DNA of 64,000 nt from a virus (lineage: Duplodnaviria; Heunggongvirae; Uroviricota; Caudoviricetes): the IMG/VR virus record IMGVR_UViG_3300023082_000008, positions 1 through 64,000 of that record. One strand, given 5' to 3'. Shown one piece after another: positions 3,057 through 23,490 of this stretch. A model generated the notes under the pieces. That model had not been told where the DNA came from. It did no database searches and was given only the letters and a program-made list of their open reading frames with translations. Made by a program: the position numbers and the translations under genes. Position 1 is the stretch's first letter. Every line of letters begins with the position of its first letter.

Positions 3057-3479
3057 ATGGAAGAAATAAGAAGTTTTACGGGAGAACATTTCTTCCTCTC
3101 TAACTTCTACCGTGAAAATGGTTCGACGGTAGAACACCGCTTCCAAGCAGCCAAGACCGATCGAATCCATGAAAAGGAACAGATCATGGCTGCTCCAACA
3201 CCAGCCAAGGCAAAGTATTGGGGTAGACGCTGCACCATGAGACCTGACTGGGAGACCGAGAAGGTCAACGTCATGTATCACCTAGTCAAGAACAAGTTTA
3301 GTCACCCCGATTTGGGCCGACGTTTGCTTGAGACGGGCGACGCTTATTTGGTTGAGGGAAACACATGGGGAGATAAATTCTGGGGCGTAGAGACCGATTC
3401 TGGTGAGGGCGAGAACCATCTGGGTATGATTCTGATGCGTGTTCGTGAGGAGTTGACACGGCACCAGCCCCTCGTGTAG
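3057..3479 (+). CDS. NADAR-domain protein (YbiA/DUF1768 family; ADP-ribose or NAD-derivative N-glycosidase type)
   Basis: FFLSNFY...VEHRFQAAK...EQIMAAPTPAKAKYWGRRC...GNTWGDKFWG are NADAR family hallmarks. ATG at 3057 follows the TGA at 3053-3055. Confidence 0.7.
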   Translation: MEEIRSFTGEHFFLSNFYRENGSTVEHRFQAAKTDRIHEKEQIMAAPTPAKAKYWGRRCTMRPDWETEKVNVMYHLVKNKFSHPDLGRRLLETGDAYLVEGNTWGDKFWGVETDSGEGENHLGMILMRVREELTRHQPLV

Positions 3480-3516
3480 TCTGTACGAATCGCCCGCATA
3501 GAGAAAGGCACCATTC

Positions 3517-4665
3517 ATGATCTTTATTGTTATCCTTATGGTCTCAATGATTGCGAGTGGTGCTTTTTTCGTTGCTAGTAAAGATATCAAGATTGGGCCG
3601 TTGAAGAGAAAGACCAAGACAGAAGCCTTTGAGCCCTATGTAGTAGGAATCAACAAGTTTCTCATTCCTCATTCTGAGTGGAGAAAGAACCTTGAATACG
3701 AATTGTCTAAGATGCGAACAATGCACGACAGTATTACATACCCCGAAGACTGGGTGTTGCTTGAGCCACTAGTTGATCCTAAGCCCAATCCATTTAGTGG
3801 CGCGTTTAAAACGCATGATACGAATGACACATATTCAGATCACAAGAACACATACGCCTATCGCTACAAGAAAATGCTTGAGCGTGAGAAGCGTGCGCTG
3901 GAAGACCTCAAGCGCAAGGAAGACGCGAACCACGCCAAAAATAGATACTATCCAAGGGTCGCTAAGAATGTCAGGGTTGGCTACCAGTCTGACAATAACC
4001 TTATGCTCATTGGCTCTATTCCCCATCGGGATAAGAATATGATGGAGCAGGTCTATAAAGATGCTCGCACTAATGAACTCAGGACCGTGTGGACCGCCTT
4101 GCCCTCAACTCAGACACCTATGGTTATTACTACCGGCTCGTCTACGGCTGATACGATCTATGCGGGCACTCGTGTCTGGCCCAAGGAGATTCCTGTCGGA
4201 CCCGAGATGAGTCACGACAACCTGATGAAGTTCAAAAAGGCAGAACTCGTTTCAATGGCCGAGCACTATGGCATTGACGTGAAGTCTAGTTGGACAAAGA
4301 CCGATCTTGTGCAGCACATTCAGGATTTGTCTGACGAGCGTAAAAAGCAAATCGACATTGGTACTTTCCAAGATTACATGTGGAGAAAGTACAATGGTCC
4401 GAAAACTCAGGGTAAAGGACGCAAGTCCCTTGATCACAATTTCAAGAAGTACGACCGTGAGCCCGAGCCGGTAGCCGAAGAGCCCATCGAGTGGACAAAG
4501 GCCATGGAGCCCCTAACAGGTGAAATTCAAATGTCAATGTCTATTCCACCGCCAGTGCTGACGCCTAATGAGTCTCGTGTTGCTCTGCACAAGCACAAGG
4601 ATCGTGTGACAGGCGAGTGGAAAAATCACTTCGCCTATGGCTATTGCGACAAGTGCAATATGTAG
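3517..4665 (+). CDS. hypothetical protein with N-terminal TM anchor
   Basis: 382-aa ORF with an N-terminal hydrophobic segment. An 8-bp hairpin at 4684-4716 follows. Confidence 0.65.
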   Translation: MIFIVILMVSMIASGAFFVASKDIKIGPLKRKTKTEAFEPYVVGINKFLIPHSEWRKNLEYELSKMRTMHDSITYPEDWVLLEPLVDPKPNPFSGAFKTHDTNDTYSDHKNTYAYRYKKMLEREKRALEDLKRKEDANHAKNRYYPRVAKNVRVGYQSDNNLMLIGSIPHRDKNMMEQVYKDARTNELRTVWTALPSTQTPMVITTGSSTADTIYAGTRVWPKEIPVGPEMSHDNLMKFKKAELVSMAEHYGIDVKSSWTKTDLVQHIQDLSDERKKQIDIGTFQDYMWRKYNGPKTQGKGRKSLDHNFKKYDREPEPVAEEPIEWTKAMEPLTGEIQMSMSIPPPVLTPNESRVALHKHKDRVTGEWKNHFAYGYCDKCNM

Positions 4666-4726
4666 TGTAGAATGGTGTGGGTACCGTCCGTGGTTGAACA
4701 TCTACCGTACGGACGGGCGGTATTCA

Positions 4727-4800
4727 TGCGCCATGGACCGAACGGTTTGACGGTGGCTGTCTTATATGCAGTTGGAGCAGGTTCAATTCCTGCATGGCGT
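4727..4800 (+). tRNA. tRNA-Ile (anticodon TAT)
   Basis: Acceptor GCGCCAT pairs with ATGGCGT. D stem ACCG/CGGT. Anticodon arm GCTGT-CTTATAT-GCAGT. T arm GCAGG-TTCAATT-CCTGC. Confidence 0.65.
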
Positions 4801-4803
4801 ACC

Positions 4804-4832
4804 CTTGACAGGGTCGGTAAAGTTAGGTAGAG
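4804..4832 (+). promoter_or_regulatory. promoter TTGACA-17-TAGAGT
   Basis: TTGACA 4804-4809, TAGAGT 4827-4832. Upstream of the 4869 gene. Confidence 0.5.
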
Positions 4833-4868
4833 TACTCTTGTATTGACTCGAAAAGATAGGAATGCTTA

Positions 4869-5204
4869 ATGAAGCGTTGCGGTTTTTGTGGAGAGAACAA
4901 GTCACTGGACCAGTACCGAATGAGGAAGACCCCTCCTATTCAACATTATGCTTACTGTAACTCTTGTGTGTATCATGCTTCAAAGAACAAGGCTAGTTAT
5001 AGCGAAGATGTGCGAGTGATGAGAGAGAAGGCTATTTCTATGCGTGCCTTTACTCCTGATCAAGATAAAGAAATTTACATTCGGGTCCTTTCTGGTACTC
5101 CTAGAACTGTCATTGCTTCCGAACATGGGGTGTCAAATTCATGTGTAGGCAAAGCCTTTAAGCGGGGTCGCTCAATGGAAATCAAAGAGCAAATGAAAAG
5201 TTGA
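4869..5204 (+). CDS. hypothetical Cys-rich protein
   Basis: 111-aa ORF starting MKRCGFCGE...CNSC, with zinc-finger-like Cys pairs. Confidence 0.55.
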   Translation: MKRCGFCGENKSLDQYRMRKTPPIQHYAYCNSCVYHASKNKASYSEDVRVMREKAISMRAFTPDQDKEIYIRVLSGTPRTVIASEHGVSNSCVGKAFKRGRSMEIKEQMKS

Positions 5205-5228
5205 CATTGCCGAATGTATCATGTAGAC
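5200..5228 (+). promoter_or_regulatory. promoter TTGACA-17-TAGACT driving the two Gly tRNAs
   Basis: TTGACA 5200-5205, TAGACT 5223-5228. Confidence 0.6.
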
Positions 5229-5239
5229 TAGAACTACAT

Positions 5240-5312
5240 GCGTGTGAGGCCCATTTGGACGGGCAGGTGATTTCCAATCATCAGGCAGCGAGTTCGAGGC
5301 TCGTCACACGCT
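5240..5312 (+). tRNA. tRNA-Gly (anticodon TCC)
   Basis: Acceptor GCGTGTG pairs with CACACGC. D stem GCCC/GGGC. Anticodon arm GGTGA-TTTCCAA-TCATC. T arm GCGAG-TTCGAGG-CTCGT. Confidence 0.8.
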
Positions 5313-5381
5313 CCATCAGCGGGGTAACGATTAGATGCAGCCACCGTTACTCAAATGAGACTGGGTACGCCCGCTGACTAT

Positions 5382-5452
5382 GTGGTATAAGTGTTCTGGT
5401 TGCACATAACCTTGCCAAGGTTAGGGAGCGAGTTCGATTCTCGTATACCGCA
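5382..5452 (+). tRNA. tRNA-Gly (anticodon GCC)
   Basis: Acceptor GTGGTAT pairs with ATACCGC. Anticodon arm TAACC-TTGCCAA-GGTTA. T arm GCGAG-TTCGATT-CTCGT. Confidence 0.75.
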
Positions 5453-5526
5453 CGACACCAAAAGGTGCTATCGAGGAATGATCCACCCGCGTATGCAAAC
5501 GGATTACAATATGCTAGAATAGATAC

Positions 5527-5682
5527 ATGACAGAGACATTCAAATATCGTGTAGTTTTGGAAGTAGAAGTTGAAGCGTTTGATGCAGATGACGCTTTTGA
5601 CAAATTGCAAGATGCAATCGGAGCGGGAGAAAACCTCGGTGTTCTTATTTCTGATTGTGAATACAAGCCAAAGAAAAGATAA
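5527..5682 (+). CDS. small acidic hypothetical protein (51 aa)
   Basis: ORF MTETFKYRVVLEVEVEAFDADDAFDKLQDAIGAGENLG... Lies between the tRNA-Gly genes and the next ORF. Confidence 0.35.
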   Translation: MTETFKYRVVLEVEVEAFDADDAFDKLQDAIGAGENLGVLISDCEYKPKKR

Positions 5683-5688
5683 ATAGAT

Positions 5689-5877
5689 ATGGACATTGCT
5701 CGTTGGTGTGAAGAGTGTAACTCAGAAGAGGCACTTGTTAGAGTTGTAGAAGATTTGGGTGGTAATCAATGGACTCACAACTGGTGCATCGAATGTGCAA
5801 AAAACAAGGTATTGACAGACGGTGAGTGGACTGCTACAATGGACTTACCACCAGATTTCAAGCCACCAATTGAATAG
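5689..5877 (+). CDS. zinc-ribbon hypothetical protein
   Basis: 62-aa ORF with WCEECN...WCIECA. Confidence 0.5.
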   Translation: MDIARWCEECNSEEALVRVVEDLGGNQWTHNWCIECAKNKVLTDGEWTATMDLPPDFKPPIE

Positions 5878-5883
5878 CAACAT

Positions 5884-5955
5884 GGGGATATAGTAGTAAT
5901 GGTAACACGACAGTTTTGCATACTGTAATCCGGGGTTCGAATCCCCGTATCTCCA
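5884..5955 (+). tRNA. tRNA-Ala (anticodon TGC)
   Basis: Acceptor GGGGATA pairs with TATCTCC. Anticodon arm ACAGT-TTTGCAT-ACTGT. T arm CGGGG-TTCGAAT-CCCCG. Confidence 0.75.
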
Positions 5956-6027
5956 CGCGACCAGTCGTTGAAACTGGTGGGTATCTAGAACCCTTACTTC
6001 TGATACTAGGAACAGATGCTAGAACAT

Positions 6028-6100
6028 GGGTTGTGAGCAGGTTAGGACTTGCGCTAAGTTGAAGCCTTAGAGACACTCGGTTCGAACCCGAGACTTCCCA
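6028..6100 (+). tRNA. tRNA-Phe (anticodon GAA) with two U-U mismatches in the acceptor stem
   Basis: D stem GCAG/CTTG. Perfect anticodon arm CTAAG-TTGAAGC-CTTAG. T arm CTCGG-TTCGAAC-CCGAG. Acceptor GGGTTGT pairs with ACTTCCC at 5 of 7 positions. Confidence 0.55.
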
Positions 6101-6164
6101 CACTGGCAGTCATGCCACGAGATTAAATAGGTCACATAGCCTTAGGGTTCTCAAAAATGACAAT

Positions 6165-6236
6165 GGGTCATTAGTGTTAATGGGAGCACGCTAGTTTTGC
6201 ACTCTAGTAGAGTGGGTTCGAGTCCCACATGTATCC
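6165..6236 (+). tRNA. tRNA, anticodon TGC (Ala-like), with acceptor mismatches; possible pseudogene
   Basis: Anticodon arm CTAGT-TTTGCAC-TCTAG. T arm GTGGG-TTCGAGT-CCCAC. Acceptor GGGTCAT pairs with ATGTATC at 5 of 7 positions. Confidence 0.45.
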
Positions 6237-6357
6237 ACTTTGGGTAGTTTTAATAGAAAACATGCTTTACATATGGCCGGTACCAGCCAGTAAAGCAGAT
6301 GTGGGTATCGAGGCCCACCCTGATTCCACCTAGAACCGTCAACAGAAAGAGGCTATC

Positions 6358-6585
6358 ATGGCTGTAGCAAAGCGTAACGAGAAGCAAAAGGCCATTGGTC
6401 AGGCGTCGTACGCCCGTGCCAAGGCACGCAAGGCCAAGAACATCGAGGAACAAGACCTCAAGACCCGCACGAATGACGTGTTCCGTGCCAAGGGCGAGCG
6501 CACTCCGTATCAGGAGCGTAAGCGCGAGAAGTACCTCGCCCGTCTGGCGAAGAAGTACGGCTCGGAGAGTGTTGACAAGGACTAA
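6358..6585 (+). CDS. small basic hypothetical protein
   Basis: 75-aa Lys/Arg-rich ORF. Its 3' end contains the promoter for the next gene. Confidence 0.5.
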   Translation: MAVAKRNEKQKAIGQASYARAKARKAKNIEEQDLKTRTNDVFRAKGERTPYQERKREKYLARLAKKYGSESVDKD

Positions 6586-6600
6586 GGTCCCTGCTAGACT
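6572..6600 (+). promoter_or_regulatory. promoter TTGACA-17-TAGACT
   Basis: TTGACA 6572-6577, TAGACT 6595-6600. Upstream of the LPXTG-protein gene. Confidence 0.55.
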
Positions 6601-6628
6601 GGTGCTCCGACCTATAGAGGGAGTCTAT

Positions 6629-7828
6629 ATGAAGAAGATTATCCTGCTGGTCATCGCAATGGTTGTGATGACACTCAGCATGGCTACCGGGGCATCGGCC
6701 ACAGAGCAGTCCACTGCTCTTCCTGCCAACGGTGTCACGAGCATTACCCAGAATGGTGACAACTTCACCATCAACCTTGCCAGCGCAGACGCCAGCGAGG
6801 TAAAGTACATCAAGCCCGGTAACACGGTTTTGTGTTCCGAGCATGAGGGCAAGCCAAAGAATGGTCACCCGCTGTGCGACAAGACCAGTTACACGATTAC
6901 GTCCAATGCGGACTGTGTCATGTTTCAGGTTGACTGGACGGACAACAAGCACAACAGTTCCGATCCTGTCAAGTGTCGTGACAAGACTGAGCCGCCAGCA
7001 GAGCCTCCCTTCAAGGATTATGAAGTTCAGGCATGCTGGAAGGTAGATAACTGGAAGGTGGGCGACGACGACTGGCCACAGACTCGTGTCGATTGCCCTA
7101 TCCCCGACAAGGCAACTACTTGTGAGGATGAGCGTTACCAGTTCGACAAGTACTGGATTCGTGACAAGGCAGATGAGGACAAGTTCAATAACCTCAAGAC
7201 GCTAGAGAATTCCGGTTCTGACGGGTCACTAGAGCCGCACGACTACTACGTCAAGACGGTACCCGGAGATAAGACCAAGTGCGCGCCGGTAGACGAAGAG
7301 ATTCCTGTACCCGCGATGCCACAGATTCTTGATCCTTGTGGTCCCGGTAATGCAAGTTGGGTCGTTCCTGCCGACACCGATAAGATCAATTGGGAAATTA
7401 CTAATGGTCCTCTTGGAGAAAAGAGCCTAACCGCTACTGCCAAGGACGGTTACACATTCCCCAACAAGGAAAAGGTTAAGGGATTCGGTAATGCACCGGA
7501 AACTAATCTTGATGCCTGCCCGGTGGTAGAGCCTCCTGTTGTAGTACCGCCGGTTGTTGAGCCTCCTGTGCCCACGCCTCCGGTAGTTACACCGCCCCCA
7601 GTATTGCCGCCAGTGACGGACAACCCGCCAATTGTGGACGAGCCTGAGGGAGAGATTGGTACGCCAATCAGCGAGCGTCGTGACAGCACGCCAGCCTCGC
7701 CGGTATATGACGAGCCAGTCTACAAGGCACTGCCTAATACAGGTGGCCCACAGGCTTGGTACGTCCTCGCAGGACTAGCCCTAGTTGCAGCCGGTACCAC
7801 GGTTGTGCTAAGATTGAGCAAGAAGTAA
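6629..7828 (+). CDS. secreted LPXTG cell-wall-anchored protein with a Pro-rich PPVV repeat stalk
   Basis: N-terminal signal peptide MKKIILLVIAMVVMTLSMATGASA. C-terminal LPNTGG, then a hydrophobic segment, then RLSKK, which is a sortase sorting signal. AGAGGGA ribosome-binding site before the ATG at 6629. Confidence 0.75.
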   Translation: MKKIILLVIAMVVMTLSMATGASATEQSTALPANGVTSITQNGDNFTINLASADASEVKYIKPGNTVLCSEHEGKPKNGHPLCDKTSYTITSNADCVMFQVDWTDNKHNSSDPVKCRDKTEPPAEPPFKDYEVQACWKVDNWKVGDDDWPQTRVDCPIPDKATTCEDERYQFDKYWIRDKADEDKFNNLKTLENSGSDGSLEPHDYYVKTVPGDKTKCAPVDEEIPVPAMPQILDPCGPGNASWVVPADTDKINWEITNGPLGEKSLTATAKDGYTFPNKEKVKGFGNAPETNLDACPVVEPPVVVPPVVEPPVPTPPVVTPPPVLPPVTDNPPIVDEPEGEIGTPISERRDSTPASPVYDEPVYKALPNTGGPQAWYVLAGLALVAAGTTVVLRLSKK

Positions 7829-7945
7829 TCATGGCGAGCCGCCCCGCAGCATTGCGGGGCGGTAGTCAGGGAAAGAGGAAATATGACAGGATTTAACACG
7901 GGCTGATTTCTTTCTAGACTAACGTTTAGAAAGGAGGTAAGCAAA

Positions 7946-8161
7946 TTGCCCGGACCTCAATCCGTCCCAAATGGGGACACAACAATCGTGCGCGGACATG
8001 TGAATGAAGTATTCATGTGTGACCTGCACAATAAAGAGTACGATCACAAGGACCACACAGAAACATATCGCAAGGAAGATGGACTTCTTCTCTGCCGTAT
8101 GGTATCCTTGAGGGAGTACCTAGGCAAGCGTAACAGGCTTGTGACAGGAAAGACAAAGTAA
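7946..8161 (+). CDS. hypothetical Cys/His-rich protein
   Basis: 71-aa ORF containing CDLHNKEYDHKDHTETY...LLC. Confidence 0.45.
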   Translation: MPGPQSVPNGDTTIVRGHVNEVFMCDLHNKEYDHKDHTETYRKEDGLLLCRMVSLREYLGKRNRLVTGKTK

Positions 8162-8169
8162 TCTAGTGA

Positions 8170-8230
8170 CTGATCCCGATAACACGGTACGCACATGAAA
8201 ATGGAGACGTATCCCGGTAGTACGGTCAGC
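8170..8230 (+). repeat. about 61-bp dispersed repeat, copy 1 (partner at 28982-29042)
   Basis: CTGATCCCGATAACACGGTACGCACATGAAAATGGAGACGTATCCCGGTAGTACGGTCAGC matches the second copy at about 80% identity. Confidence 0.6.
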
Positions 8231-8452
8231 ATGGATAATTTAAGATGACTGCCGGTCTATGCTCCACGTAGGGTGCACCTACAAAGTCCTTGAGGCTTGA
8301 TACGGAATGGGGAAGCGCGGTAGTTGTCAACTATAACTGAATAGGTCGGGTGCTATCAACAGCACGGTGGGAATTATCCCTAGGGGAAACCTTATACTCT
8401 GTGTTTGCAAAATGGACGATCTGGTACACAAGTCAGGTCACCCGACCAACAT

Positions 8453-8522
8453 GCCCCACGTGCCGGATGCACAATTGAGCCTTCTAATCTCTATTTGCCG
8501 AGTTCGACTCTCGGGTGGGGTA
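8453..8522 (+). tRNA. tRNA with atypical anticodon arm (possibly TCT, Arg); CCA encoded at 8523-8525
   Basis: Acceptor GCCCCAC pairs with GTGGGGT. T arm CCGAG-TTCGACT-CTCGG. Discriminator A then CCA. Only 70 nt long; the anticodon stem is ambiguous. Confidence 0.5.
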
Positions 8523-8602
8523 CCAGAAATCACAGAGTTAATGACTTTGGTCAAATAGCCTAATTAACTATTTGATTAGCGTATGTGAGATTTCGTTAAT
8601 TT

Positions 8603-8674
8603 GCGCTTGTAGTTCAGAGGCAGAACATTGGTTTCCTAAACCAACGGTCGCGGGTTCGAATCCCGCCAAGCGCA
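8603..8674 (+). tRNA. tRNA-Arg (anticodon CCT)
   Basis: Acceptor GCGCTTG pairs with CAAGCGC. D stem GTTC/GAAC. Anticodon arm TTGGT-TTCCTAA-ACCAA. T arm GCGGG-TTCGAAT-CCCGC. Confidence 0.85.
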
Positions 8675-8938
8675 CGGCGGAAGGTCCGGTGCCAACTCCG
8701 GTACCCTGCATCGAATAGTCTAAAATTGTGAGTACGCGTAGCGGAAAGCATCAACTGACGAAAGAGCAGGCGAAGTTCTCAGTAGAACACCGCATTTATT
8801 TGTACCGTGAGGACCGAAGCGTCTGGCCATAACAAATTCCAGTGGTCGGGTAGCGGGGTGAGGTCTGATACTGTCGAAGGGAATCTCCCAAGAGTAATGG
8901 ATTGTGAGGGAGAGCGGTATAATTTACTTAGAGTCGAC

Positions 8939-8968
8939 TTGACTTTATCATTCACAGTCTGCTAGACT
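8939..8968 (+). promoter_or_regulatory. promoter TTGACT-18-TAGACT upstream of the prs-nadV operon
   Basis: TTGACT 8939-8944, TAGACT 8963-8968. About 80-nt structured leader before prs. Confidence 0.55.
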
Positions 8969-9049
8969 GTACCTAGGAAGTTTTCAGAAGCGTTCGAACA
9001 AGCGGCTTCGCTTCCTCAAGGCCCTTCGTGGCCCAGAAAGGATAAAACA

Positions 9050-9931
9050 ATGTTCACTGATGAAATTCAGGTTGCATATACCACAAAGTTTGTGCATCCT
9101 TCAAATATGCTACCGACTCGTAACGATTTGGTAAAATTCAACGCTGATCTAGGATCATACCCAGACGGTATGCCCTTTATCAAGCAAGACGCTGTTCGTG
9201 ATCTGCACAAGGCAGACCTTACAGTCGTTATTCGCCAGAAGAGCCTAGAGTCGTTCGTTACCGGCCTGTTTATGGTGGATGCCCTACGCGAACGAGGCAA
9301 CTTTGTTCGCAAGTTGGTGCTGCCATTCATTCCCGCAGCACGACAGGATCGGATCAACCCCGAGGGAGATTATCTCTTTACCCTCAAGTCCGTTGCGAAG
9401 ATGATCAATGATCGCAACTTTGATGAGGTTGTTGTCCTTGATCCTCACAGCACAGTGGCCACGGCTCTTATTGACCGTGTCCGCGTTTTCCCAATCGCAG
9501 ATATGCTGCACAAGTTCTGGGTTGGATATGACGCTGTCATCGCTCCCGATAAGGGCGCGGTAGGACGTGCACAGGAAGCAGCCGATGCCCTAAACATCAT
9601 TAACGGAACCAACATGCCCGTTATCCACGCAGACAAGACACGTGACGTTGCTACTGGCAAGTTGACCGGGTTCGATGTTAGCGTAGAGGCAGGCAAGCAC
9701 TACCTTGTCTTTGACGATATTTGCGACGGTGGTGGTACCTTTATTGGTCTTGGAGACAAGATCGTACAGCAAGGTGCTTCGGCTGGACTCTTCGTCACCC
9801 ATGGTGTATTCTCCAAGGGCACAGGAGTGCTAAGCAACATTTACGGTGCAATTACAACAACAGACTCCACACTATTCGACAAGCACGACGTTCGGGTCAT
9901 CCCGGTCGTTGAAAGGATGATCATTTCATGA
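9050..9931 (+). CDS. prs: ribose-phosphate pyrophosphokinase (PRPP synthetase)-like
   Basis: VVLDPHS and LVFDDICDGGGT (PRPP-binding loop) motifs. Classic phage pairing directly upstream of nadV with ATGA overlap. Confidence 0.75.
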   Translation: MFTDEIQVAYTTKFVHPSNMLPTRNDLVKFNADLGSYPDGMPFIKQDAVRDLHKADLTVVIRQKSLESFVTGLFMVDALRERGNFVRKLVLPFIPAARQDRINPEGDYLFTLKSVAKMINDRNFDEVVVLDPHSTVATALIDRVRVFPIADMLHKFWVGYDAVIAPDKGAVGRAQEAADALNIINGTNMPVIHADKTRDVATGKLTGFDVSVEAGKHYLVFDDICDGGGTFIGLGDKIVQQGASAGLFVTHGVFSKGTGVLSNIYGAITTTDSTLFDKHDVRVIPVVERMIIS

Positions 9932-11388
9932 GCGCAGCAGACGCACTATTTTACACAGACGGTTACAAGTTGGGTCACATTCACATGTACCCCGAGAAGA
10001 CAGAGTTTGTTCTGTCCAACTTCACTCCCCGTACCAGCCGCATCAAGGATATCGACAATGTCGTGTTCTTCGGTCTACAGCACTGGCTGGCTGAGACGCT
10101 GGGTGAAACGTGGGGTCGCTTCTTCGCTGGTGACATTGAAGAGATTGTCGCTGAGTACGAGGACTTCCTGTCCAACTACCTCGGACCCAACACGGTTGGT
10201 TCGCAGCAGTGGCGCGACCTGCACGCTCTGGGCTACCTGCCACTAGAATTCCGCGCGGTACCTGAGGGTTCCAGCGTTCCCCTGCGAGTTCCTATGTTTA
10301 CCGTAGAGAACACGCACAAGGACTTCTACTGGCTGGTGAACTACCTTGAGACCAGCATGTCCAACGCTCTGTGGATGCCTTGCACGTCGGCAACCATTGC
10401 CAAGCGTATGCGCACAATGCTGAATGAAAAGGCACTCAAGACCGGCAAGACGGTAGATGACGTGGCATTTGGTGGTCATGATTTCTCCATGCGCGGTATG
10501 AGCGGACTTGATGCCTGCCAGACCAGCGGAGCAGCACACCTTGTTTCCTTTACGGGAAGTGACAGCCTGCCTGCCATTCGATTTGTTAAGAAGTTCTACC
10601 CAACCGATTCGTTCATTGGTGGTGGCGTTCCTGCAACTGAGCATGCCGTGATGTGCGCGGGCGGTAAGGAATCCGAGATTGAGACATTCCGTCGTCTTCT
10701 TCGTGACAACCCCACAGGTATCCTAAGTGTTGTTTCTGACACATGGGACCTATGGCGAGTACTCACGGTCTACCTGCCAGAACTCAAGGATGAGATTATG
10801 GCTCGTGAGGGCACGCTGGTTATTAGACCAGACTCCGGTAACCCTTCGAATATCCTGATGGGTGATCCGGACGCTGAGGCAGGCTCGCCAGCATCCAAGG
10901 GTGTTGTCAACCTGCTCGCAGAGGTCTTCGGAACCACGACCAACGAGGCAGGATTCAAGAGCCTTGACAGCCATGTCGGTGCTATTTACGGTGATTCGAT
11001 TAACTTCGAGCGTGCCGACGATATCACCAACCGTCTGATTGAGCAGGGCTACGTTGCTACGCAGGTTGTTCTGGGAATGGGTAGTTACGGCTACCAGATG
11101 AACACTCGTGACACGTTCGGCTTCGCTATCAAGGCGACGAATGTCGTTATTGATGACGTCGAGACGCCCATCTTCAAGGACCCGATCACGGACGACGGCA
11201 CGAAGAAGTCTCTCAAGGGACGTATCGCGGTGTTCGAAAACTCTAGTGGTGAGTTGGCGGTTGCAGACAATCAGGCTCCGGGCAGTGCAATGCTGGATAA
11301 CAGCCTGCTCAAGCCGGTATGGAGAAACGGAAAGTTCATCAAGGAATACACCTTTGATGAGGTCCGTGAAAATGCCCTCCGAGCATAG
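9928..11388 (+). CDS. nadV: nicotinamide phosphoribosyltransferase (NAMPT/NadV)
   Basis: Full-length similarity to NAMPT: DGYK at the N-terminus, FGLQ, AVPEG, FTVENT, DFSMRG, AHLVSF and IRPDSGNP blocks. Confidence 0.9.
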   Translation: MSAADALFYTDGYKLGHIHMYPEKTEFVLSNFTPRTSRIKDIDNVVFFGLQHWLAETLGETWGRFFAGDIEEIVAEYEDFLSNYLGPNTVGSQQWRDLHALGYLPLEFRAVPEGSSVPLRVPMFTVENTHKDFYWLVNYLETSMSNALWMPCTSATIAKRMRTMLNEKALKTGKTVDDVAFGGHDFSMRGMSGLDACQTSGAAHLVSFTGSDSLPAIRFVKKFYPTDSFIGGGVPATEHAVMCAGGKESEIETFRRLLRDNPTGILSVVSDTWDLWRVLTVYLPELKDEIMAREGTLVIRPDSGNPSNILMGDPDAEAGSPASKGVVNLLAEVFGTTTNEAGFKSLDSHVGAIYGDSINFERADDITNRLIEQGYVATQVVLGMGSYGYQMNTRDTFGFAIKATNVVIDDVETPIFKDPITDDGTKKSLKGRIAVFENSSGELAVADNQAPGSAMLDNSLLKPVWRNGKFIKEYTFDEVRENALRA

Positions 11389-11473
11389 GTACAAGTACAC
11401 AGTGATCTTCCGGGACGGTACGTTTTATCAGGGGGATGTGCCGCCACCGGAGAAAACTGCTTGGGATTATCCC

Positions 11474-11502
11474 TTGACACACCTGTTCCTGTCGTATAAA
11501 AT
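11474..11502 (+). promoter_or_regulatory. promoter TTGACA-17-TAAAAT
   Basis: TTGACA 11474-11479, TAAAAT 11497-11502. Upstream of a small membrane-peptide gene. Confidence 0.4.
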
Positions 11503-11564
11503 GACTGGTACACGAATTGTTCAAGCCTACAAAGACTTGGCAATCACAACCATTAGGAGTCAAC

Positions 11565-11675
11565 ATGCTTGGATTCGCTCTCATTGTCATCGCTGGTCTG
11601 GTCACCAAGGTCGTTAAGGACGTTACCAACCTGCCCAACCCTGTTACTCCTGAGAATCAGGGCGCGATCCTTTAG
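11565..11675 (+). CDS. small membrane peptide (36 aa)
   Basis: MLGFALIVIAGLVTKVV... with an AGGAGT ribosome-binding site 5 nt upstream. Confidence 0.45.
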   Translation: MLGFALIVIAGLVTKVVKDVTNLPNPVTPENQGAIL

Positions 11676-11715
11676 TTGACACACACATGGAGCCTGTGTT
11701 AAACTGGTTCTACAA

Positions 11716-11787
11716 GCCCGAATGGTCCAATGGACATGACGCGACGCTACGGACGTTGAGATGGAGGTTCGATTCCTCTTTCGGGTA
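11716..11787 (+). tRNA. tRNA-Arg (anticodon ACG)
   Basis: Acceptor GCCCGAA pairs with TTCGGGT. Anticodon arm CGACG-CTACGGA-CGTTG. T arm GGAGG-TTCGATT-CCTCT. Confidence 0.75.
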
Positions 11788-11789
11788 CT

Positions 11790-11861
11790 GTGTACGTGGC
11801 AGATAGGTAATGCCCTCGGTTGTGATCCGAGACCATGCGGGTTCAAATCCCGTCGTACACC
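11790..11861 (+). tRNA. tRNA-His (anticodon GTG)
   Basis: Acceptor GTGTACG pairs with CGTACAC. Anticodon arm CTCGG-TTGTGAT-CCGAG. T arm GCGGG-TTCAAAT-CCCGT. Confidence 0.8.
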
Positions 11862-11895
11862 CCATTTGAACCGTCACCTAGAGTAAGGCTATGTT

Positions 11896-12102
11896 ATGAA
11901 AATTAGGCCACTCAGCCGCAGGATGGAAAATTTTCTGTTTATTTCAATCGTGTTAATTGTTGTACTAGTAATTCCAACAATTATAGTTGCTTACACATAT
12001 GAAGAAAAGCCAAGTTCTCACCAACAGTGCCGAGTCGCTAACGGCCAGTGGGTTGACGGACCTGCAACGCGCCCGTACTGCATCTACCCTAGGGGATATT
12101 AA
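11896..12102 (+). CDS. small membrane/secreted hypothetical protein
   Basis: 68-aa ORF with TM segment FLFISIVLIVVLVIPTIIVAY and Cys residues in the C-terminal part. Confidence 0.5.
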   Translation: MKIRPLSRRMENFLFISIVLIVVLVIPTIIVAYTYEEKPSSHQQCRVANGQWVDGPATRPYCIYPRGY

Positions 12103-12542
12103 TGAAGGTTACAGAAATTCAGGGTGATCTATTTGCAGACCTTAAGGTAGGTGATGCAGTAGCGCATGGAGCGAACTGCCGTGGAATCATGGGAGCCGGT
12201 GTGGCAAAAGCAATCAAGGCCAAATTCCCCCAGAACTTTAATTACTACAATCAGTTTTGCAATCGAGATATGTTTAAGCCCGGAGACATTATCCCTTTTC
12301 AGGAAAATGGCTTTGTAATCTACAACCTTGGCACTCAGTATGAACTCGGTGCTGATGCCAAGGTTGAAAACGTCAGGGTCTCTGTCCGTTCCATGGTTTC
12401 TCACGCAGCGACATACACGGACCTTAAGCAGATCAAGACCGTGCGTCTGGGCTGTGGAATCGGTGGTCTGGACTGGGACGAAGTGAAGCCGGTACTTGAA
12501 GAGATTCCCTCGGAACTAGAATTAATCGTTTATTACTTCTAA
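12102..12542 (+). CDS. macro-domain protein (ADP-ribose binding or hydrolase)
   Basis: GDLF...AHGANCRGIMGAGVA is the macro-domain nucleotide-binding loop. 146 aa, typical length for a stand-alone macro domain. Confidence 0.7.
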   Translation: MKVTEIQGDLFADLKVGDAVAHGANCRGIMGAGVAKAIKAKFPQNFNYYNQFCNRDMFKPGDIIPFQENGFVIYNLGTQYELGADAKVENVRVSVRSMVSHAATYTDLKQIKTVRLGCGIGGLDWDEVKPVLEEIPSELELIVYYF

Positions 12543-12579
12543 AGGTTGCTATTAAGCATTCACGTGGTATGATTGAGAC

Positions 12580-13041
12580 ATGCTAAGCACAGTTCAGCGC
12601 TATCTCAACCGCCTTGTATGGAAAACTCCTCGACAGCGGTTTACCACATTTCTTCAAATTGGAATTATTCACACATTAATTTTTGGCCTGGCATTTACAC
12701 TTTTTTCAGGCACACATATTGTAGATGAATTACAGTTGTTTCAATTTACATCAGAATATTTGCCAAACATACCTGGAAATTTGTGGGGAGCCTTACTATT
12801 ATTGGTAGTTTTTGGACATATTTGCGAAATGATATTCAGAGGTAAAGGAATCGGTTCTGTTACGGCCATGATAGGATTCATGTTGTGGTTGTACGCGGCA
12901 TTGTCTTATATCTCTTTAGGATTGTACGCGTCAGTATTTTTAGTTTGTTTTTGGCCTGTTTGTTTTTGGATTTGGTATTATGCTTCGGCAATTATCTACA
13001 AGAAACAACTTGACAGGGGCCTCATCAAGCCTGTAGACTAG
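12580..13041 (+). CDS. polytopic membrane protein, family paralogue 1 (related to 36703 and 37128)
   Basis: Four predicted TM helices. Shares the C-terminal FWxW...Y motif with the two tandem paralogues. Confidence 0.6.
   Translation: MLSTVQRYLNRLVWKTPRQRFTTFLQIGIIHTLIFGLAFTLFSGTHIVDELQLFQFTSEYLPNIPGNLWGALLLLVVFGHICEMIFRGKGIGSVTAMIGFMLWLYAALSYISLGLYASVFLVCFWPVCFWIWYYASAIIYKKQLDRGLIKPVD
13010..13039 (+). promoter_or_regulatory. promoter TTGACA-18-TAGACT
   Basis: TTGACA 13010-13015, TAGACT 13034-13039. Drives the tRNA-Cys cluster. Confidence 0.55.
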
Positions 13042-19653: not shown

Positions 19654-21558
19654 ATGATTCCACAGAAGACCAATGCCACTGTCGAGGGTTCGCTCGGGGG
19701 TCGAACCGCTGCTGCTACTGTCCGTCCTGAGGACATGGCACATATCATGCAGGTTCTTACTGACTTGTATTCAGACAATGCTCTGGCCGTACTTAGAGAG
19801 TACAGCACCAACGCTCGCGACGTGCACATCAAGTACAAGATTGCACGTCCTATTGAGGTCACGCTACCTTCGCGCCTATCCAACACCCTGACGATCAAGG
19901 ATTTTGGTCCCGGCATGGACGGTGATGACATGGAAATCACTTATACCCATTACGGACGCTCCAACAAGCGTGAGTCTGCCGATGAAAATGGCTTTTTGGG
20001 TCTGGGCTCCAAGTCGGCCCTGACTTATACAACCACTTTCACGGTTGTTTCCGTCAAGGATGGAATTAAGACTCAGGCTGTCGTCTTTCGCGATGAGGAG
20101 GGACTGCTCCACATTAACATTGTGGCAGAATCTCCCACGACCGATCTTTCAGGAACGATTGTCACCATTCCAACAAAGTTGGGTGACAACTTTACCGATA
20201 AGGCCAGAGAGTTTTACAAGGTTTGGGACAAGGGCACGGTTCTGGTCAACGGCGAGCAGCCAAAGCACATCAGTGAAGAGGATGGTTGGACTGTCCTCGG
20301 TGATCACTACATTCGTATAAACCAGAATGGCTACCGCTCCGAGTCTCGCATGAACGTTGTCATGGGCAACGTCACCTACAAGGTTGAAATGCCGACTCCA
20401 TCATCGTTCCGTGTTGGAATTGAGACATTTACTTTCGTTCCCAACGGCTCGGTGAAGTTCGTTCCCTCTCGTGAGGCTCTGGACCTCAAGCCGTCCACAA
20501 AGGCTGTTGTAGACAATGCGTGGGATGACATGGCTACTCGCTACCTCGCTTATTTCAAGGACGGTCTGGCCAAGGCTCAGACGATTGAGGATGCCGTCAA
20601 GGTCTTCCTTCCTATGATGAGCGTGCTCGGTCACCAGCAGGGACTTGAGTGGCGCGGTATCAAGTTGCAGGAAACGAATCGCTACAATGGACGAGAGTGG
20701 TCCAAGGGCTGGCAGAACAACGGTATTGGTGCAACTCAGATGCGTGACAATGTATCTTTGTCTACCGCATATGCCAGCGACACGGCATTTATCACCAACC
20801 GTACCTCCAAGTCTTCGCTGAGTTCTGGTGAAAAGGCACGTTTGGCTCAATACTTGACCGCAAATGGCGGCGGTATTACGCGGGTTTACTTCAATGGAGA
20901 TGAACTCGATGTATTCAAGGGTGCGAAGAAGATTGATTGGCAGGTCGTTCTGACCTCGACTCAGTCTCCGACCACTCCCAAGACCACGCGTCCCAAGGAT
21001 CAATGGGAGTATTACACGACGGACGGTACCTCTCGTACCCGTCAGTTCGGCTCGGTACCGGCAGGCAAGACAGTCCTGTACGGCTCCAACACCGAACTCC
21101 GTCTAGATACTTGGAATCCCATTGACCTTGATTTTCTTAATCACATGGGTCCGCAGTACGTTTGGTTCAATGTGGCGCTGAATCGTCAGGAGAAGTTCAA
21201 GCGGGACAATCCCGGAGCGGAGCATTTCCGTACGCATCTTGACAAGTTTGTCGAGAAGGTCCGACACAGTCTGACAGAGGAAGAGAAGTTGGCTTACAAG
21301 GCTTACGATCTAGGGGATTCTCTTCTCTATGACAGTCTTCTCGGCAAGACTGATGACCCGCTTATTGACCTGATTCATGGTACAATGGGAGTAGCAAAGG
21401 TAAAGGGAGAGAAGGTAAATCGCATCCTGCGACTGGTTCGCAAGGGTTCGTTCTCAGTGCCCGGTGAAGATTACATTGCAGAGAATTACCCTCTTGCAAC
21501 ACGTGATCATATCGACCACAGCATTCTCTACATCAACTACATCAAGAATGGAAAGTGA
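19654..21558 (+). CDS. rIIA: rIIA-like protein with N-terminal GHKL (histidine-kinase-like) ATPase fold
   Basis: Bergerat-fold motifs EYSTNARD (N box), DFGPGM (G1) and GFLGLGSKS (G2). The 634-aa size and the rIIB-like gene directly downstream fit the T4 rIIA/rIIB arrangement. Confidence 0.55.
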   Translation: MIPQKTNATVEGSLGGRTAAATVRPEDMAHIMQVLTDLYSDNALAVLREYSTNARDVHIKYKIARPIEVTLPSRLSNTLTIKDFGPGMDGDDMEITYTHYGRSNKRESADENGFLGLGSKSALTYTTTFTVVSVKDGIKTQAVVFRDEEGLLHINIVAESPTTDLSGTIVTIPTKLGDNFTDKAREFYKVWDKGTVLVNGEQPKHISEEDGWTVLGDHYIRINQNGYRSESRMNVVMGNVTYKVEMPTPSSFRVGIETFTFVPNGSVKFVPSREALDLKPSTKAVVDNAWDDMATRYLAYFKDGLAKAQTIEDAVKVFLPMMSVLGHQQGLEWRGIKLQETNRYNGREWSKGWQNNGIGATQMRDNVSLSTAYASDTAFITNRTSKSSLSSGEKARLAQYLTANGGGITRVYFNGDELDVFKGAKKIDWQVVLTSTQSPTTPKTTRPKDQWEYYTTDGTSRTRQFGSVPAGKTVLYGSNTELRLDTWNPIDLDFLNHMGPQYVWFNVALNRQEKFKRDNPGAEHFRTHLDKFVEKVRHSLTEEEKLAYKAYDLGDSLLYDSLLGKTDDPLIDLIHGTMGVAKVKGEKVNRILRLVRKGSFSVPGEDYIAENYPLATRDHIDHSILYINYIKNGK

Positions 21559-22895: not shown

Positions 22896-23044
22896 GCCTA
22901 GACGAGTTTCGAGCCCTGTCGTCGTCAGAGATGGAAGAGCACTTGCTTTCCGTCACTGCCCTGTGCTACGATGGTGCACCCAAGTCCCTTGCTCGCAAGG
23001 TTGAACTTTACATCCAGCGAATTAGAAATGAGCGAAGCCGATGA
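22892..23044 (+). CDS. small hypothetical protein (50 aa)
   Basis: Operon-consistent with ATGA overlaps. Confidence 0.35.
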   Translation: MSLDEFRALSSSEMEEHLLSVTALCYDGAPKSLARKVELYIQRIRNERSR

Positions 23045-23490
23045 AGAAGATGAGAGACGCTGTCATTTTTGACATGGACGGCACACTGGCTGACGTGTCG
23101 AGCATCCGTCACCACGTAACCGCTGGTCAGACCGACTTTCACGCGTTCCACATGGCCTCGGTCGACGTGCCTGCGCATCAGGACATCGTTGAGGAACTGT
23201 ACCGTCATCAGGCTGACAACAAGGCAATTGTGATTGTCACGGCTCGGAACGAGCGGTACATGAACGTGACCGTGTGGTGGTGCCTGTTCGCCGGTATCAC
23301 GTACGATCAAATGTACTTCCGCCCTAGGGACGATCAGCGTCCTGACGTGGAGGTCAAGCGCGACATTCTGGCTCAACTGCGCAAGGATGGATTCAACCCT
23401 GTCCACGCCTACGATGACAACCCGAGCATCGTGAACCTGTGGGCTGAGGAAAACATTCCTTGCACCGTCGTTCCGGGGTGGATCGAGTGA
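23041..23490 (+). CDS. HAD-superfamily phosphatase (Pnk 3'-phosphatase-like)
   Basis: VIFDMDGTLAD (DxDGT motif I), IVIVTAR (motif II) and YDDNPS (motif IV). 149 aa. Lies two genes upstream of the CCA-adding enzyme. Confidence 0.65.
   Translation: MKKMRDAVIFDMDGTLADVSSIRHHVTAGQTDFHAFHMASVDVPAHQDIVEELYRHQADNKAIVIVTARNERYMNVTVWWCLFAGITYDQMYFRPRDDQRPDVEVKRDILAQLRKDGFNPVHAYDDNPSIVNLWAEENIPCTVVPGWIE

Follow-up and report, generated by a model that had tools for sequence, protein, structure and literature searches.

The genes at positions 9050–9931 and 9928–11388 almost certainly constitute, on sequence comparison, NARP1: a phage system that is known rather than new, made up of an Adps-like ADP-ribose pyrophosphokinase with the PRPS fold and a Namat-like nicotinamide ADP-ribose transferase with the Nampt fold. 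They lie in a stretch of 64,000 nucleotides (hereafter the window) from an uncultured, tRNA-rich phage of about 126 kb, for which no close relative was found in INPHARED or IMG/VR. A sequence-only reading had called the genes prs and nadV and grouped them with a NADAR gene (3057–3479) and a macro-domain gene (12102–12542). All four open reading frames are present on the + strand, and profile searches of the four proteins matched each predicted Pfam family (NADAR, Pribosyltran, NAPRTase and Macro). The locus is nevertheless a known system and no new four-gene module, with the NADAR gene a loosely linked neighbour. We infer all enzymatic activities and anti-defence phenotypes from characterised homologues.

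The probable Adps–Namat pair and its promoter

The first protein of the pair matches Pfam Pribosyltran (1.6e-6), with the Prs N-domain (0.0075) under its cut-off. It also scores below cut-off with each of the 11 NCBIfam Prs models and reaches only about 50 bits against solved PRPS enzymes; against PHROG 619 it scores 210 bits. Identity is 36% to DyoEdafos gp77 and 38% to the Gary-type Adps (validated Adps), compared with 24% to Escherichia coli Prs. With PMC13586617 as the reference, the conserved residues are K196, R98, H133, D167, D222, D223 and D226, and the catalytic lysine K196 aligns with Gary K192 and ICP1 K185. The motif DDICDGGGTF, which holds the DDICD ribose loop, and the lid phenylalanine are present, and the short C terminus lacks the PRPS C-terminal module. 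The RF loop has no aligned aromatic residue equivalent to ICP1 Phe92.

The second protein matches Pfam NAPRTase (3.5e-36) and NAMPT_N. Its top structure matches are solved phage Namats (SpbetaL1 9w5x/9w5w, 460 bits; 9ke8, 419 bits), whereas true Nampts all score about 224–237 bits, the human and Xanthomonas enzymes about 234. The 11-residue SCH motif GSYGYQMNTRD matches the GSXphiXphiXphiTRD consensus of the Namat adenine clamp, and both SCL Arg38 and the catalytic core (D11, Y13, F186, R189, D212, H239, R300 and D302, compared with PMC12774641) are kept. Position 7 of the SCH motif is methionine and not aromatic; the validated DyoEdafos Namat has histidine there and the solved 9ke8 protein has arginine. 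The DyoEdafos Namat, to which our protein is 51–52% identical, converts ADP-ribose (ADPR) to NAD+ in vitro together with its Adps. The motif may discriminate NARP1 incompletely: it occurs in 80 of 80 bacterial chromosomal homologues, only 33 of which have an Adps gene within 3 kb.

The two genes overlap by four nucleotides, ATGA, as had been read from the sequence (...TCATGAGC...), and Adps adjoins Namat in 75 of 80 related IMG/VR loci. A promoter of their own, previously placed at 8939 and described as consensus, was recovered at 8939–8968 (+ strand; TTGACT-N18-TAGACT; 9/12 match), with the extended −10 element TGCTAGACT, TG included. The promoter stands but the sigma-70 consensus does not: the site belongs to a phage-specific class, TTGACW-N16–18-TAGACT, with 14 copies in place of the 0.01 expected, every one on the + strand. 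Its −10 block is retained 5′ of Adps in two relatives, L119 and L121. We found no terminator-like site on the + strand from 9050 to 12880. The NARP1 operon would be expressed from this early-type phage promoter.

The pair shares with characterised NARP1 systems (Osterman et al.; PMC12774641, PMC13586617) the adjacent, translationally coupled order of Adps then Namat, the PRPS-like and Nampt-like folds, the catalytic lysine, DDICD loop, truncated C terminus, selectivity-clamp motif and SCL arginine, the absence of an NMN adenylyltransferase (NMNAT) and a place in the early or accessory region of a phage genome. It differs in sequence (only 36–38% identity for Adps and 43–52% for Namat to characterised members), in an SCH motif with glycine at phi-1 as well as methionine at position 7, in the unaligned RF-loop aromatic and in its carrier, a tRNA-rich lineage without close relatives in those two databases.

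The NADAR gene and the cluster question

The protein encoded at 3057–3479 (+ strand) matches Pfam NADAR (1.2e-24), has YbiA (2b3w) as its best solved match and belongs to the YbiA subfamily of NADAR N-glycosidases. Its start at 3057 is correct, as the protein opens MEEIRSFTGEHFFLSNFY right after the upstream stop. The ADPR-site residues of PnNADAR are matched at E26, K33, R57, W65, K69, E100, D106 and W109, and the protein is an intact YbiA-type enzyme that plausibly resembles AdfN. Like the orphan phage NADARs that counter DarTG1 (AdfN; PMC11825919), it is small and stand-alone and keeps the catalytic Glu and Lys, with E26 and K33 spaced as E36 and K43 are in T4 AdfN. In contrast to them it is of the YbiA subfamily, its Glu standing at a site taken by His in T4-type phage NADARs and by Asp in DarG1. 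Members of several phage NADAR clades neutralise DarTG1; this one would most likely strip ADP-ribose from guanine in DNA, as an AdfN-like counter to DarTG1 that works independently of NARP1.

There is a considerable chance, if one short of even, that its substrate is instead a small molecule, such as an intermediate of the riboflavin pathway, the case of YbiA, or an immune signal derived from ADPR, and not ADP-ribosylated DNA. Membership of the YbiA subfamily, a Glu at the E125 position and a score of 72.9 bits on TIGR02464 (riboflavin-intermediate N-glycosidase), slightly below its cut-off of 73.7, all point that way, as does the finding that the E. coli YbiA-type NADAR gave no protection from DarT1 in vivo. 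Iyer et al. see soluble ADP-ribose derivatives as the main targets of phage NADARs. Set against this, all four NADAR subtypes tested hydrolyse guanine-ADP-ribose in vitro, and three unrelated phage NADARs counter DarTG1.

The NADAR gene forms a separate transcription unit, probably outside that of NARP1. The spacing given earlier is accurate, with the NADAR gene ending 5.6 kb 5′ of Adps and the macro gene starting 714 bp 3′ of Namat. The proposal that the four genes form one coordinated cluster found no support: each of the three units has a promoter-like site of its own, and NADAR and NARP1 lie near each other in only 2 of 80 Namat loci and none of 31 NADAR loci. One close relative retains the NADAR and macro genes without NARP1.

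The macro gene downstream of Namat

The macro gene (12102–12542, + strand) encodes a stand-alone domain of 146 amino acids that matches Pfam Macro (7.3e-12) and PHROG 335, ‘phosphatase’ (128 bits), and resembles Adpp, T4 Tk.4 and Poa1p. DarG and TARG1 have a catalytic lysine (K80 and K84, respectively); the protein has Q79 at this position, and glutamine is likewise found in 11 of 11 aligned Adpps. Its H22 and N25 align with Gary Adpp H24 and N27, the positions picked for Adpp mutants in Table S4 of the NARP1-AP study (bioRxiv 10.64898/2026.01.28.702374), the main text of which reports that Adpp mutations abolish anti-aRES activity. On an Adpp HMM it scores 79.9 bits. By overall similarity the protein falls between Adpp and DarG, with 80 bits on the NCBIfam DarG model and 51.5 bits on a purpose-built DarG HMM, above the score of every Adpp. 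Because it keeps the two essential Adpp residues and has Gln in place of the DarG/TARG1 Lys, we favour an ADPR-1′′-phosphate phosphatase, as in NARP1-AP, over a DNA de-ADP-ribosylase. A role for the NADAR and macro genes in ADP-ribose biology, as originally suggested, holds, but reversal of DarT-type DNA ADP-ribosylation by the macro protein is unlikely.

Between Namat and the macro gene are tRNA-Arg(ACG) and tRNA-His(GTG) (11716–11864, + strand) and a gene for a 68-residue predicted membrane protein (11896–12102, + strand), for which no family match was found and whose TAA stop overlaps the macro ATG (TAATG). A motif scan placed two promoter-like sites (11474–11705, + strand), TTGACA-17-TAAAAT at 11474 and TTGACA-18-TAAACT at 11676, around a 36-residue open reading frame, between Namat and the tRNA and macro genes.

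The arrangement agrees with NARP1-AP in that the macro protein stands alone, has about 150 residues, belongs to the same family and carries the family-typical Gln along with the His and Asn mutated in Gary Adpp; its gene is on the same strand 3′ of Namat, and no terminator-like site separates the two. The arrangement differs in that the gene lies neither in nor directly beside the operon, beyond two genes from NARP1 (the published operational criterion), with the two tRNA genes, two or three small open reading frames and the two promoter-like sites intervening. Identity to published Adpps, none of which comes from Mycobacterium, Rhodococcus, Gordonia, Streptomyces or Microbacterium phages, is only 26–32%. 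Of 80 loci, 15 have a macro gene no more than 10 kb from NARP1, in keeping with the published share of 15%, and the order Adps–Namat–macro is kept in L119 and L121.

The macro protein could instead be a lineage-conserved enzyme that works outside NARP1 and sits beside it through inherited synteny, a possibility that we take seriously while doubting it. Candidate roles are clearance of ADPR-1′′-P or ADPR-cyclic-P after RNA repair (Tpt1/2H/Poa1p-type), O-acyl-ADPR deacylation, or removal of ADP-ribose from protein or RNA. Among the five loci of its closest homologues (54–65% identity), three (L123, L124 and L125) lack NARP1 within 10 kb, and in L124 the gene has Rnl1, PNKP and another RNA ligase close by. 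Homologues of the T4 Tk.4 type are present in about 2,200–2,700 phage records, mostly without NARP1. The window encodes a 2H phosphoesterase, a PNKP-type phosphatase, a CCA-adding-type enzyme and 36 tRNAs, and the best solved match of the protein is TARG1, an O-acyl-ADPR deacylase. However, its His, Asn and Gln signature is identical to that of a proven Adpp, KptA/Tpt1 and RNA ligase were not found in the window, and NARP1 is directly upstream of the macro gene in all three lineage members that have it.

A DarG-like DNA ADP-ribosyl glycohydrolase that mimics the antitoxin against DarTG2 is very improbable. Phage DarG mimics are known, the GxGxGGLDW(D/E)(E/D)V motif is almost that of Mycobacterium tuberculosis DarG and the NCBIfam DarG model gives 80 bits over the macro part. 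But this score is far under the 250 that the model requires, the catalytic Lys has given way to Gln79, and the FPTKKHW motif and the DarT-binding C-terminal domain are absent from a protein of this length.

The proposed route back to NAD+

The pair had been cast as a counter to NAD+ depletion, which stands in outline, acting from ribose 5-phosphate (R5P) through PRPP to NMN, which does not: this Pfam-based mechanism was overturned for the NARP1 gene pair by Osterman et al. (Nature 2024 / bioRxiv 10.1101/2024.02.11.579819), and the pair fits NARP1. It is very improbable that a true Prs here makes PRPP from R5P and a true Nampt makes NMN from nicotinamide and PRPP, with a host or unseen phage NMNAT completing NAD+ (NARP2-like or classical salvage). 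The Pfam and NCBIfam names of both proteins agree with such salvage, Namat enzymes retain PRPP-dependent NMN synthesis in vitro at about half the NMN-forming activity of Nampt, many motif-bearing bacterial homologues have no Adps nearby, and about 60 kb of the genome lie outside the NMNAT search. Yet the Prs-like protein reaches none of the curated Prs cut-offs and groups with Adps enzymes that have been validated, and the second protein scores twice as high with Namat as with Nampt. Moreover, according to Osterman et al., purified SpbetaL1 Adps lacks Prs-type activity and forms ADPR-PP from ADPR and ATP, host PncC/NadR are dispensable for Bas63 counter-defence, and phages with NARP2 Nampts have no Prs-like gene. 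NARP2 itself (Nampt plus a bifunctional NMNAT/Nudix, for example KVP40 NadV/NatV) shares with our locus a Nampt-fold enzyme for NAD+ restoration, but here the partner is Prs-like and the Nampt-fold enzyme groups with Namat instead of Nampt.

Searches of window open reading frames of at least about 75 residues, and of the 8 kb past the window end, turned up no NMNAT, Nudix or KptA domain, in line with the earlier remark that no NMNAT was seen in the window. This absence is expected and leaves no gap, because NARP1 runs from ADPR through ADPR-PP to NAD+.

We therefore return to NARP1. A highly probable account of the whole locus combines a NARP1 operon, a likely Adpp-type macro helper and a NADAR enzyme that acts independently. 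A host NADase defence of the SIR2, TIR, SEFIR or DSR type would break NAD+ into ADP-ribose and nicotinamide; Adps would load the beta,gamma-pyrophosphate from ATP onto position 1′′ of ADP-ribose, and Namat would join the resulting ADPR-PP to nicotinamide, regenerating NAD+ in a single step without NMNAT. The macro protein would convert ADPR-1′′-P, the product of RES-type NAD+ phosphorylases (aRES), to ADP-ribose, extending NARP1 as in NARP1-AP. A stand-alone role would be compatible with this, since ADPR-1′′-P of any source yields ADPR, the substrate of NARP1.

Adps and Namat homologues

The locus is a new, divergent member of the NARP1 family, in which an Adps and a Namat convert ADP-ribose (ADPR) through ADPR-PP to NAD+, and an independent NADAR gene lies in the same early arm. 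The biology is known and the phage lineage is new; no new kind of system is revealed. All four open reading frames of the sequence-only reading exist on the + strand as it described them, encoding a NADAR protein (3057–3479), a Prs-like protein (9050–9931), a Nampt-like protein (9928–11388) and a macro-domain protein (12102–12542), and the Pfam families that it predicted (NADAR, Prs, NAPRTase/Nampt and Macro) were matched, with the Prs N-terminal domain under its cut-off.

Pfam assigns NAPRTase (3.5e-36) and NAMPT_N to the Nampt-fold protein. In a search of solved structures, it scored 460 bits (9w5x/9w5w) and 419 bits (9ke8) against phage Namats, and 224–237 bits against all solved Nampts (human, rodent and Xanthomonas); it is 45–52% identical to the SpbetaL1 and DyoEdafos Namats. 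The core residues D11, Y13, F186, R189, D212, H239, R300, D302, G355 and D356 align with the SpbetaL1 core (in the same order, D13, Y15, F189, R192, D215, the catalytic His, R306, D308, G360 and D361). The SCL reads PRTSR, and its R38 aligns with SpbetaL1 R40, a loop arginine that stacks on adenine (PMC12774641). The 11-residue clamp (SCH) motif, GSYGYQMNTRD, fits the consensus GSXphiXphiXphiTRD: its length is correct, Tyr stands at positions 3 and 5, and Q, N and TRD are kept. Position 7 is Met, not an aromatic residue; the 9ke8 protein has Arg there and the DyoEdafos Namat, for which activity has been shown in vitro, has His. These alignments assign the protein to the Namat group, not to Nampt.

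Bacterial chromosomal homologues from a scan of genome contigs bear on how the motif is to be read. The sequence GS[FY]TYQ[YF][NV]TRD is carried by all 80 Namat-like genes (L126–L205, mostly Bacteroidota), only 33 of which have an Adps within 3 kb, so that the motif alone may fail to distinguish Namat from Nampt; our predicted Namat identity rests on the motif combined with the Adps partner. Some of these bacterial genes occupy ordinary metabolic neighbourhoods, for example in Kordia algicida, and the one in Aquimarina muelleri has genes for an ADP-ribosylglycohydrolase and a calcineurin-like phosphoesterase as neighbours.

The partner protein had been taken for a canonical Prs, an identity that profile searches do not bear out: none of the 11 NCBIfam Prs models reaches its cut-off (best score 84.9 versus 113), and Pfam reports only Pribosyltran (1.6e-6), with Pribosyltran_N at 16.6 versus a cut-off of 25. 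It reaches approximately 50 bits against solved PRPS enzymes, although nothing in the solved-structure library outscores canonical PRPS, and 210 bits with the phage family PHROG 619. Its identity to validated Adps enzymes is 36% (DyoEdafos) and 38% (Gary-type), compared with 24% to Escherichia coli Prs. For the comparison of residues, the Gary-type and DyoEdafos Adps served as references, the ICP1 Adps being absent from the first 50 kb of HQ641347. The catalytic Lys is K196, in the context K-T-R-D-V-A-T-G (Gary K192, K-I-R-D-V-L-T-G), and it is accompanied by R98, H133, D167, D222, D223, D226 and the lid residue F231. The PP-loop reads DDICDGGGTF, and the acceptor residues and DDICD loop are as described for ICP1 Adps; an aromatic equivalent to Phe92 fails to align. 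Only 21 residues follow the conserved D272, compared with approximately 43 in E. coli Prs. This short C terminus reflects loss of the alpha11–alpha12 module, which is a signature of the Adps family (PMC13586617). These sequence features assign the PRPS-fold protein to the Adps clade rather than to the canonical Prs enzymes.

Osterman et al. (bioRxiv 10.1101/2024.02.11.579819) began with the same Pfam annotations and expected NMN as the product. In their hands, counter-defence did not depend on PncC and NadR, by which the host turns NMN into NAD+; the purified Prs-like protein failed to act as a Prs and pyrophosphorylated ADPR instead, and the Nampt-like enzyme joined ADPR-PP and nicotinamide to give NAD+. 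We place the pair studied here in NARP1 on the basis of the Nampt-like protein, the Prs-like protein and the gene arrangement taken together. By analogy, the Adps-like protein would convert ADPR and ATP to ADPR-PP, the Namat-like protein would combine this with nicotinamide to form NAD+, and the pair would provide rescue from NAD+-depleting defences. The anti-NAD+-depletion role first proposed survives in spirit, as counter-defence; the proposed mechanism, synthesis of PRPP and then NMN, was wrong and gives way to NARP1.

Domain searches across the window and 8 kb past its end detected neither an NMNAT nor a Nudix or KptA domain, which agrees with the original failure to see an NMNAT. The absence was then read as a gap; under NARP1 it is expected. 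A NARP2 system, in which Nampt is accompanied by an NMNAT (NadM/Nudix) gene and Adps is lacking, does not fit: no CTP_transf_like or Nudix match occurs across the same span, and an Adps is present.

The Adps-like and Namat-like genes overlap by ATGA, as had been noted, with a single promoter upstream, and are translationally coupled behind it. Adps lies beside Namat in 75 of the 80 best Namat loci in IMG/VR. The promoter proposed at 8939 is real, although its −10 element differs from the textbook hexamer: the site (8939–8968) reads TTGACT-N18-TAGACT and is one of 14 matches to TTGACW-N16-18-TAGACT in the window (909, 1259, 5201, 6572, 8939, 13010, 16459, 17083, 19344, 28438, 33524, 37582, 45487 and 48241), all on the + strand and often with a TG(C) extended −10, versus 0.01 expected by chance. 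The −10 block of the 8939–8968 site is also conserved upstream of Adps in two related phages, and we accept the site as a promoter of a phage-specific class.

The downstream macro-domain protein

The macro protein (12102–12542) matches Pfam Macro at 7.3e-12. Among solved structures, human TARG1 matches it best, ahead of DarG macro domains and of yeast Poa1p, which aligns over the N terminus. The Poa1p link consists of this N-terminal PDB match (29 bits) and of shared motifs; a search of the protein with Pfam Macro_2, the Poa1p family, gave no match even at E = 1. The subfamilies cannot be told apart by overall similarity, as an Adpp HMM scores 79.9 bits for the window protein, 67 for DarG and 57 for TARG1, and the protein is 26–32% identical to Adpps and 35% identical to TARG1. 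Searches with the Gary Adpp and with the window protein lead to one large family in both cases, the T4 Tk.4 ‘phosphatase’ family.

We aligned the protein with published Adpp sequences, TARG1 and two DarG macro domains (the Mycobacterium tuberculosis sequence, identical to PDB 5m3i, and that of Thermus aquaticus, from the 5m31 alignment). H22 and N25 align with H24 and N27 of the Gary Adpp, positions that have been mutated; Adpp mutations abolish anti-aRES activity (bioRxiv 10.64898/2026.01.28.702374). Q79 falls in the column of DarG K80 and TARG1 K84, and Gln occupies this column in 11 of 11 Adpps aligned; the local sequence is NLGTQYEL, where the DarG-type motif is FPTKKHW. At 146 amino acids, the protein consists of the macro domain only and lacks the DarT-binding domain that DarG has at its C terminus; its 80 bits with the NCBIfam DarG model fall far short of the cut-off of 250. 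The sequence-only reading had allowed for a DarG-type de-ADP-ribosylase. Given the His/Asn and Gln79 alignment, with the catalytic Lys absent, we reject a DarG-type DNA glycohydrolase and favour a predicted ADPR-1''-P phosphatase.

Osterman et al. (2026 preprint, bioRxiv 10.64898/2026.01.28.702374) observed a macro protein at 15% of the NARP1 operons and showed that the one from Vibrio phage Gary, Adpp, removes the phosphate from ADPR-1''-phosphate, which the RES-domain defence aRES produces, and so restores the NARP1 substrate. By analogy, the window protein would act with NARP1 in rescue from aRES. Its gene starts 714 bp downstream of Namat on the same strand with no terminator-like site between them, and the interval holds two promoter-like sites, a 36-amino-acid open reading frame, tRNA-Arg, tRNA-His and a 68-amino-acid membrane open reading frame. 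The published definition of NARP1-AP places the macro gene within two genes of NARP1, whereas two or three small open reading frames and two tRNA genes intervene here. Together with the macro protein downstream, the locus probably works as a NARP1-AP system. None of the published NARP1-associated phosphatases comes from a phage of Mycobacterium, Rhodococcus, Gordonia, Streptomyces or Microbacterium, the five actinobacterial genera that were compared.

Although a scan of IMG/VR with the macro protein as the single query returned no confirmed relative, a search of 5.8 billion proteins found homologues 54–66% identical, on contigs of approximately 77–126 kb. The gene order Adps–Namat–macro is shared by two close relatives, L119 and L121, whose Namats are 77% and 89% identical. 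A third, L123 (Logan SRR22868774), has macro and NADAR at their backbone positions and no NARP1 within 10 kb, and its NARP1 position is occupied by rIIA/rIIB. Two further loci with almost no DNA similarity to the window (L124 and L125) also have the macro gene and no NARP1 within 10 kb; in L124, it lies near RNA ligases and PNKP. These loci do not clearly tie the evolution of the macro gene to NARP1. Because relatives carry macro either with or without it, the macro gene can be seen as the conserved element and NARP1 as a cassette that is swapped in and out next to it; in this phage lineage, NARP1 is a variable cassette.

In the relative L121 (JGI 3300063171), a SIR2-family gene (5742–6455) is inserted directly upstream of Adps, and an HNH homing-endonuclease gene (7639–8073) lies between Adps and Namat. 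The SIR2 gene beside NARP1 and macro suggests that phage-made O-acyl-ADPR is recycled.

The NADAR gene and its linkage to NARP1

The protein encoded at 3057–3479 matches Pfam NADAR at 1.2e-24 (87.8 bits). Its FLSNF-type N terminus begins directly after the upstream stop codon, so that the start given at 3057 is correct, and it is a compact NADAR of the YbiA subfamily. A NADAR only 47% identical to it is encoded by a Microbacterium phage of 191,968 bp. Residues E26, K33, R57, W65, K69, E100, D106 and W109 align with E43, K50, R79, W89, R93, E125, D130 and W133 of PnNADAR, and all ADP-ribose-binding residues of the Phytophthora NADAR structure are conserved. The protein has Glu where DarG1 has Asp and T4-type phage NADARs have His. 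Phage NADARs drawn from three clades and named AdfN neutralize DarTG1 by removing ADP-ribose from guanine (PMC11825919). All four NADAR subtypes tested hydrolysed guanine-ADPr in vitro, although E. coli YbiA was not protective in vivo. By analogy, an AdfN-like role is plausible for the window protein, but it may instead act on a small-molecule substrate (Iyer et al.).

The NADAR gene and NARP1 belong to different transcription units; NADAR is the upstream one, at a distance of 5.6 kb that spans about ten genes. Within 10 kb on either side, NADAR and NARP1 occur together in 2 of 80 Namat-centred loci and in none of 31 loci centred on the closest NADAR homologues, linkage counts on which we reject a conserved NADAR–NARP1 module. 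NADAR stands at one and the same backbone position in L119, where NARP1 is present, and in L123, where it is absent; in L121, that position is just beyond the DNA examined. The coordinated module of four genes that had been proposed thus gives way on these counts and on L123, which keeps NADAR and macro without NARP1.

There are exceptions. The IMG/VR locus L065 (9944–14080) has a contiguous run of Namat, Adps, macro, NADAR and Nuc_deoxyri_tr2 (nucleoside-deoxyribosyltransferase-like), and L083, also from IMG/VR (6018–11551), has NADAR, GIY-YIG, Adps, Nuc_deoxyri_tr2, endonuclease VII and Namat. These two are rare compact clusters of NARP1, NADAR and a SLOG-like gene. NadV-type genes are common in large phage genomes, where Macro, NADAR, Nudix and SLOG genes co-occur above chance (Iyer et al.).

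Phage setting and ADP-ribose salvage

The phage is uncultured, and the window corresponds to its early/accessory arm. The exact Namat protein occurs on the ENA metagenome contig ERZ27228600:k141_1069415, which is 126,220 bp long, as well as on one from Logan, and the best match in an IMG/VR scan with this protein is 58% identical. Megablast of 8800–12600 and 19000–43000 against 50,697 phage records gave no match, which indicates that there is no cultured close relative, and an exact-protein look-up with the open reading frame at 63511–63936 found no match on record. The 36 tRNA genes, all on the + strand (975–37743) and scattered among many small open reading frames, are a very large set for a phage of approximately 126 kb. 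Other genes encode a rIIA-like GHKL ATPase and a rIIB-like protein (19654–22445), a PNKP-type HAD phosphatase (23041–23490), a CCA-adding-type nucleotidyltransferase (23918–24673), an SPFH/Band-7 protein (27535–28437) and a calcineurin-like phosphoesterase (38915–39862).

A secreted protein (approximately 6632–7828, +) without a family match has a signal peptide, a Pro-rich stalk and a C-terminal sortase-type anchor (LPNTGG, a hydrophobic stretch and RLSKK). The anchor hints at a Gram-positive host, and there are hints that the host of the lineage is Gram-positive and possibly actinobacterial. A weak SLOG-family match (YAcAr, PF10686; 45096–45512, +) reaches 22.3 bits where the cut-off is 28.2; in phages, SLOG proteins reportedly accompany Macro and NADAR (Iyer et al.). 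In L087, a locus that reaches past the end of the window, a HIT-family hydrolase gene (7057–7410, approximately 3 kb beyond that end) adjoins ThyX, and further along are genes for a glutaredoxin, a class II-type ribonucleotide reductase, a glycosyltransferase and an Amidase_2 lysin.

A 2H phosphoesterase (35550–36209, +) matches 2_5_RNA_ligase2 at 28.5 bits and TIGR02258 at 30 bits, the latter below cut-off; on these matches, it could open 2',3'- or 1'',2''-cyclic phosphates of ADPR or RNA. Its gene is 23 kb from the macro gene. We think it unlikely that the macro protein, this phosphoesterase and NADAR all feed ADP-ribose into NARP1 as a single salvage hub. In such a hub, the phosphoesterase would convert ADPR-1'',2''-cyclic-P, including species that would arise spontaneously from labile ADPR-PP, to ADPR-1''-P, the macro protein would convert ADPR-1''-P to ADPR, NADAR would free ADPR from guanine-ADPr DNA, and the ADPR released by each reaction would return to NAD+ through NARP1. 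Were this so, NAD+ spent by NADases, RES phosphorylases and DarT would be recycled by the phage, and the Namat–Adps–macro–NADAR–SLOG-like cluster of L065 would be a compact version of that design.

For phage genomes more widely, the assignment of the pair to NARP1 corrects a tempting mis-annotation: ‘Prs + Nampt’ pairs in phages are to be read as Adps and Namat, and a missing NMNAT beside such a pair is diagnostic and not puzzling. A further, divergent NARP1 thus comes from a tRNA-rich, uncultured phage lineage of approximately 126 kb, and an Adpp-type phosphatase probably goes with it. The comparison of relatives, in which NARP1 is swappable and the neighbouring macro gene is conserved, offers a way to ask whether Tk.4-type macro proteins serve an independent role.
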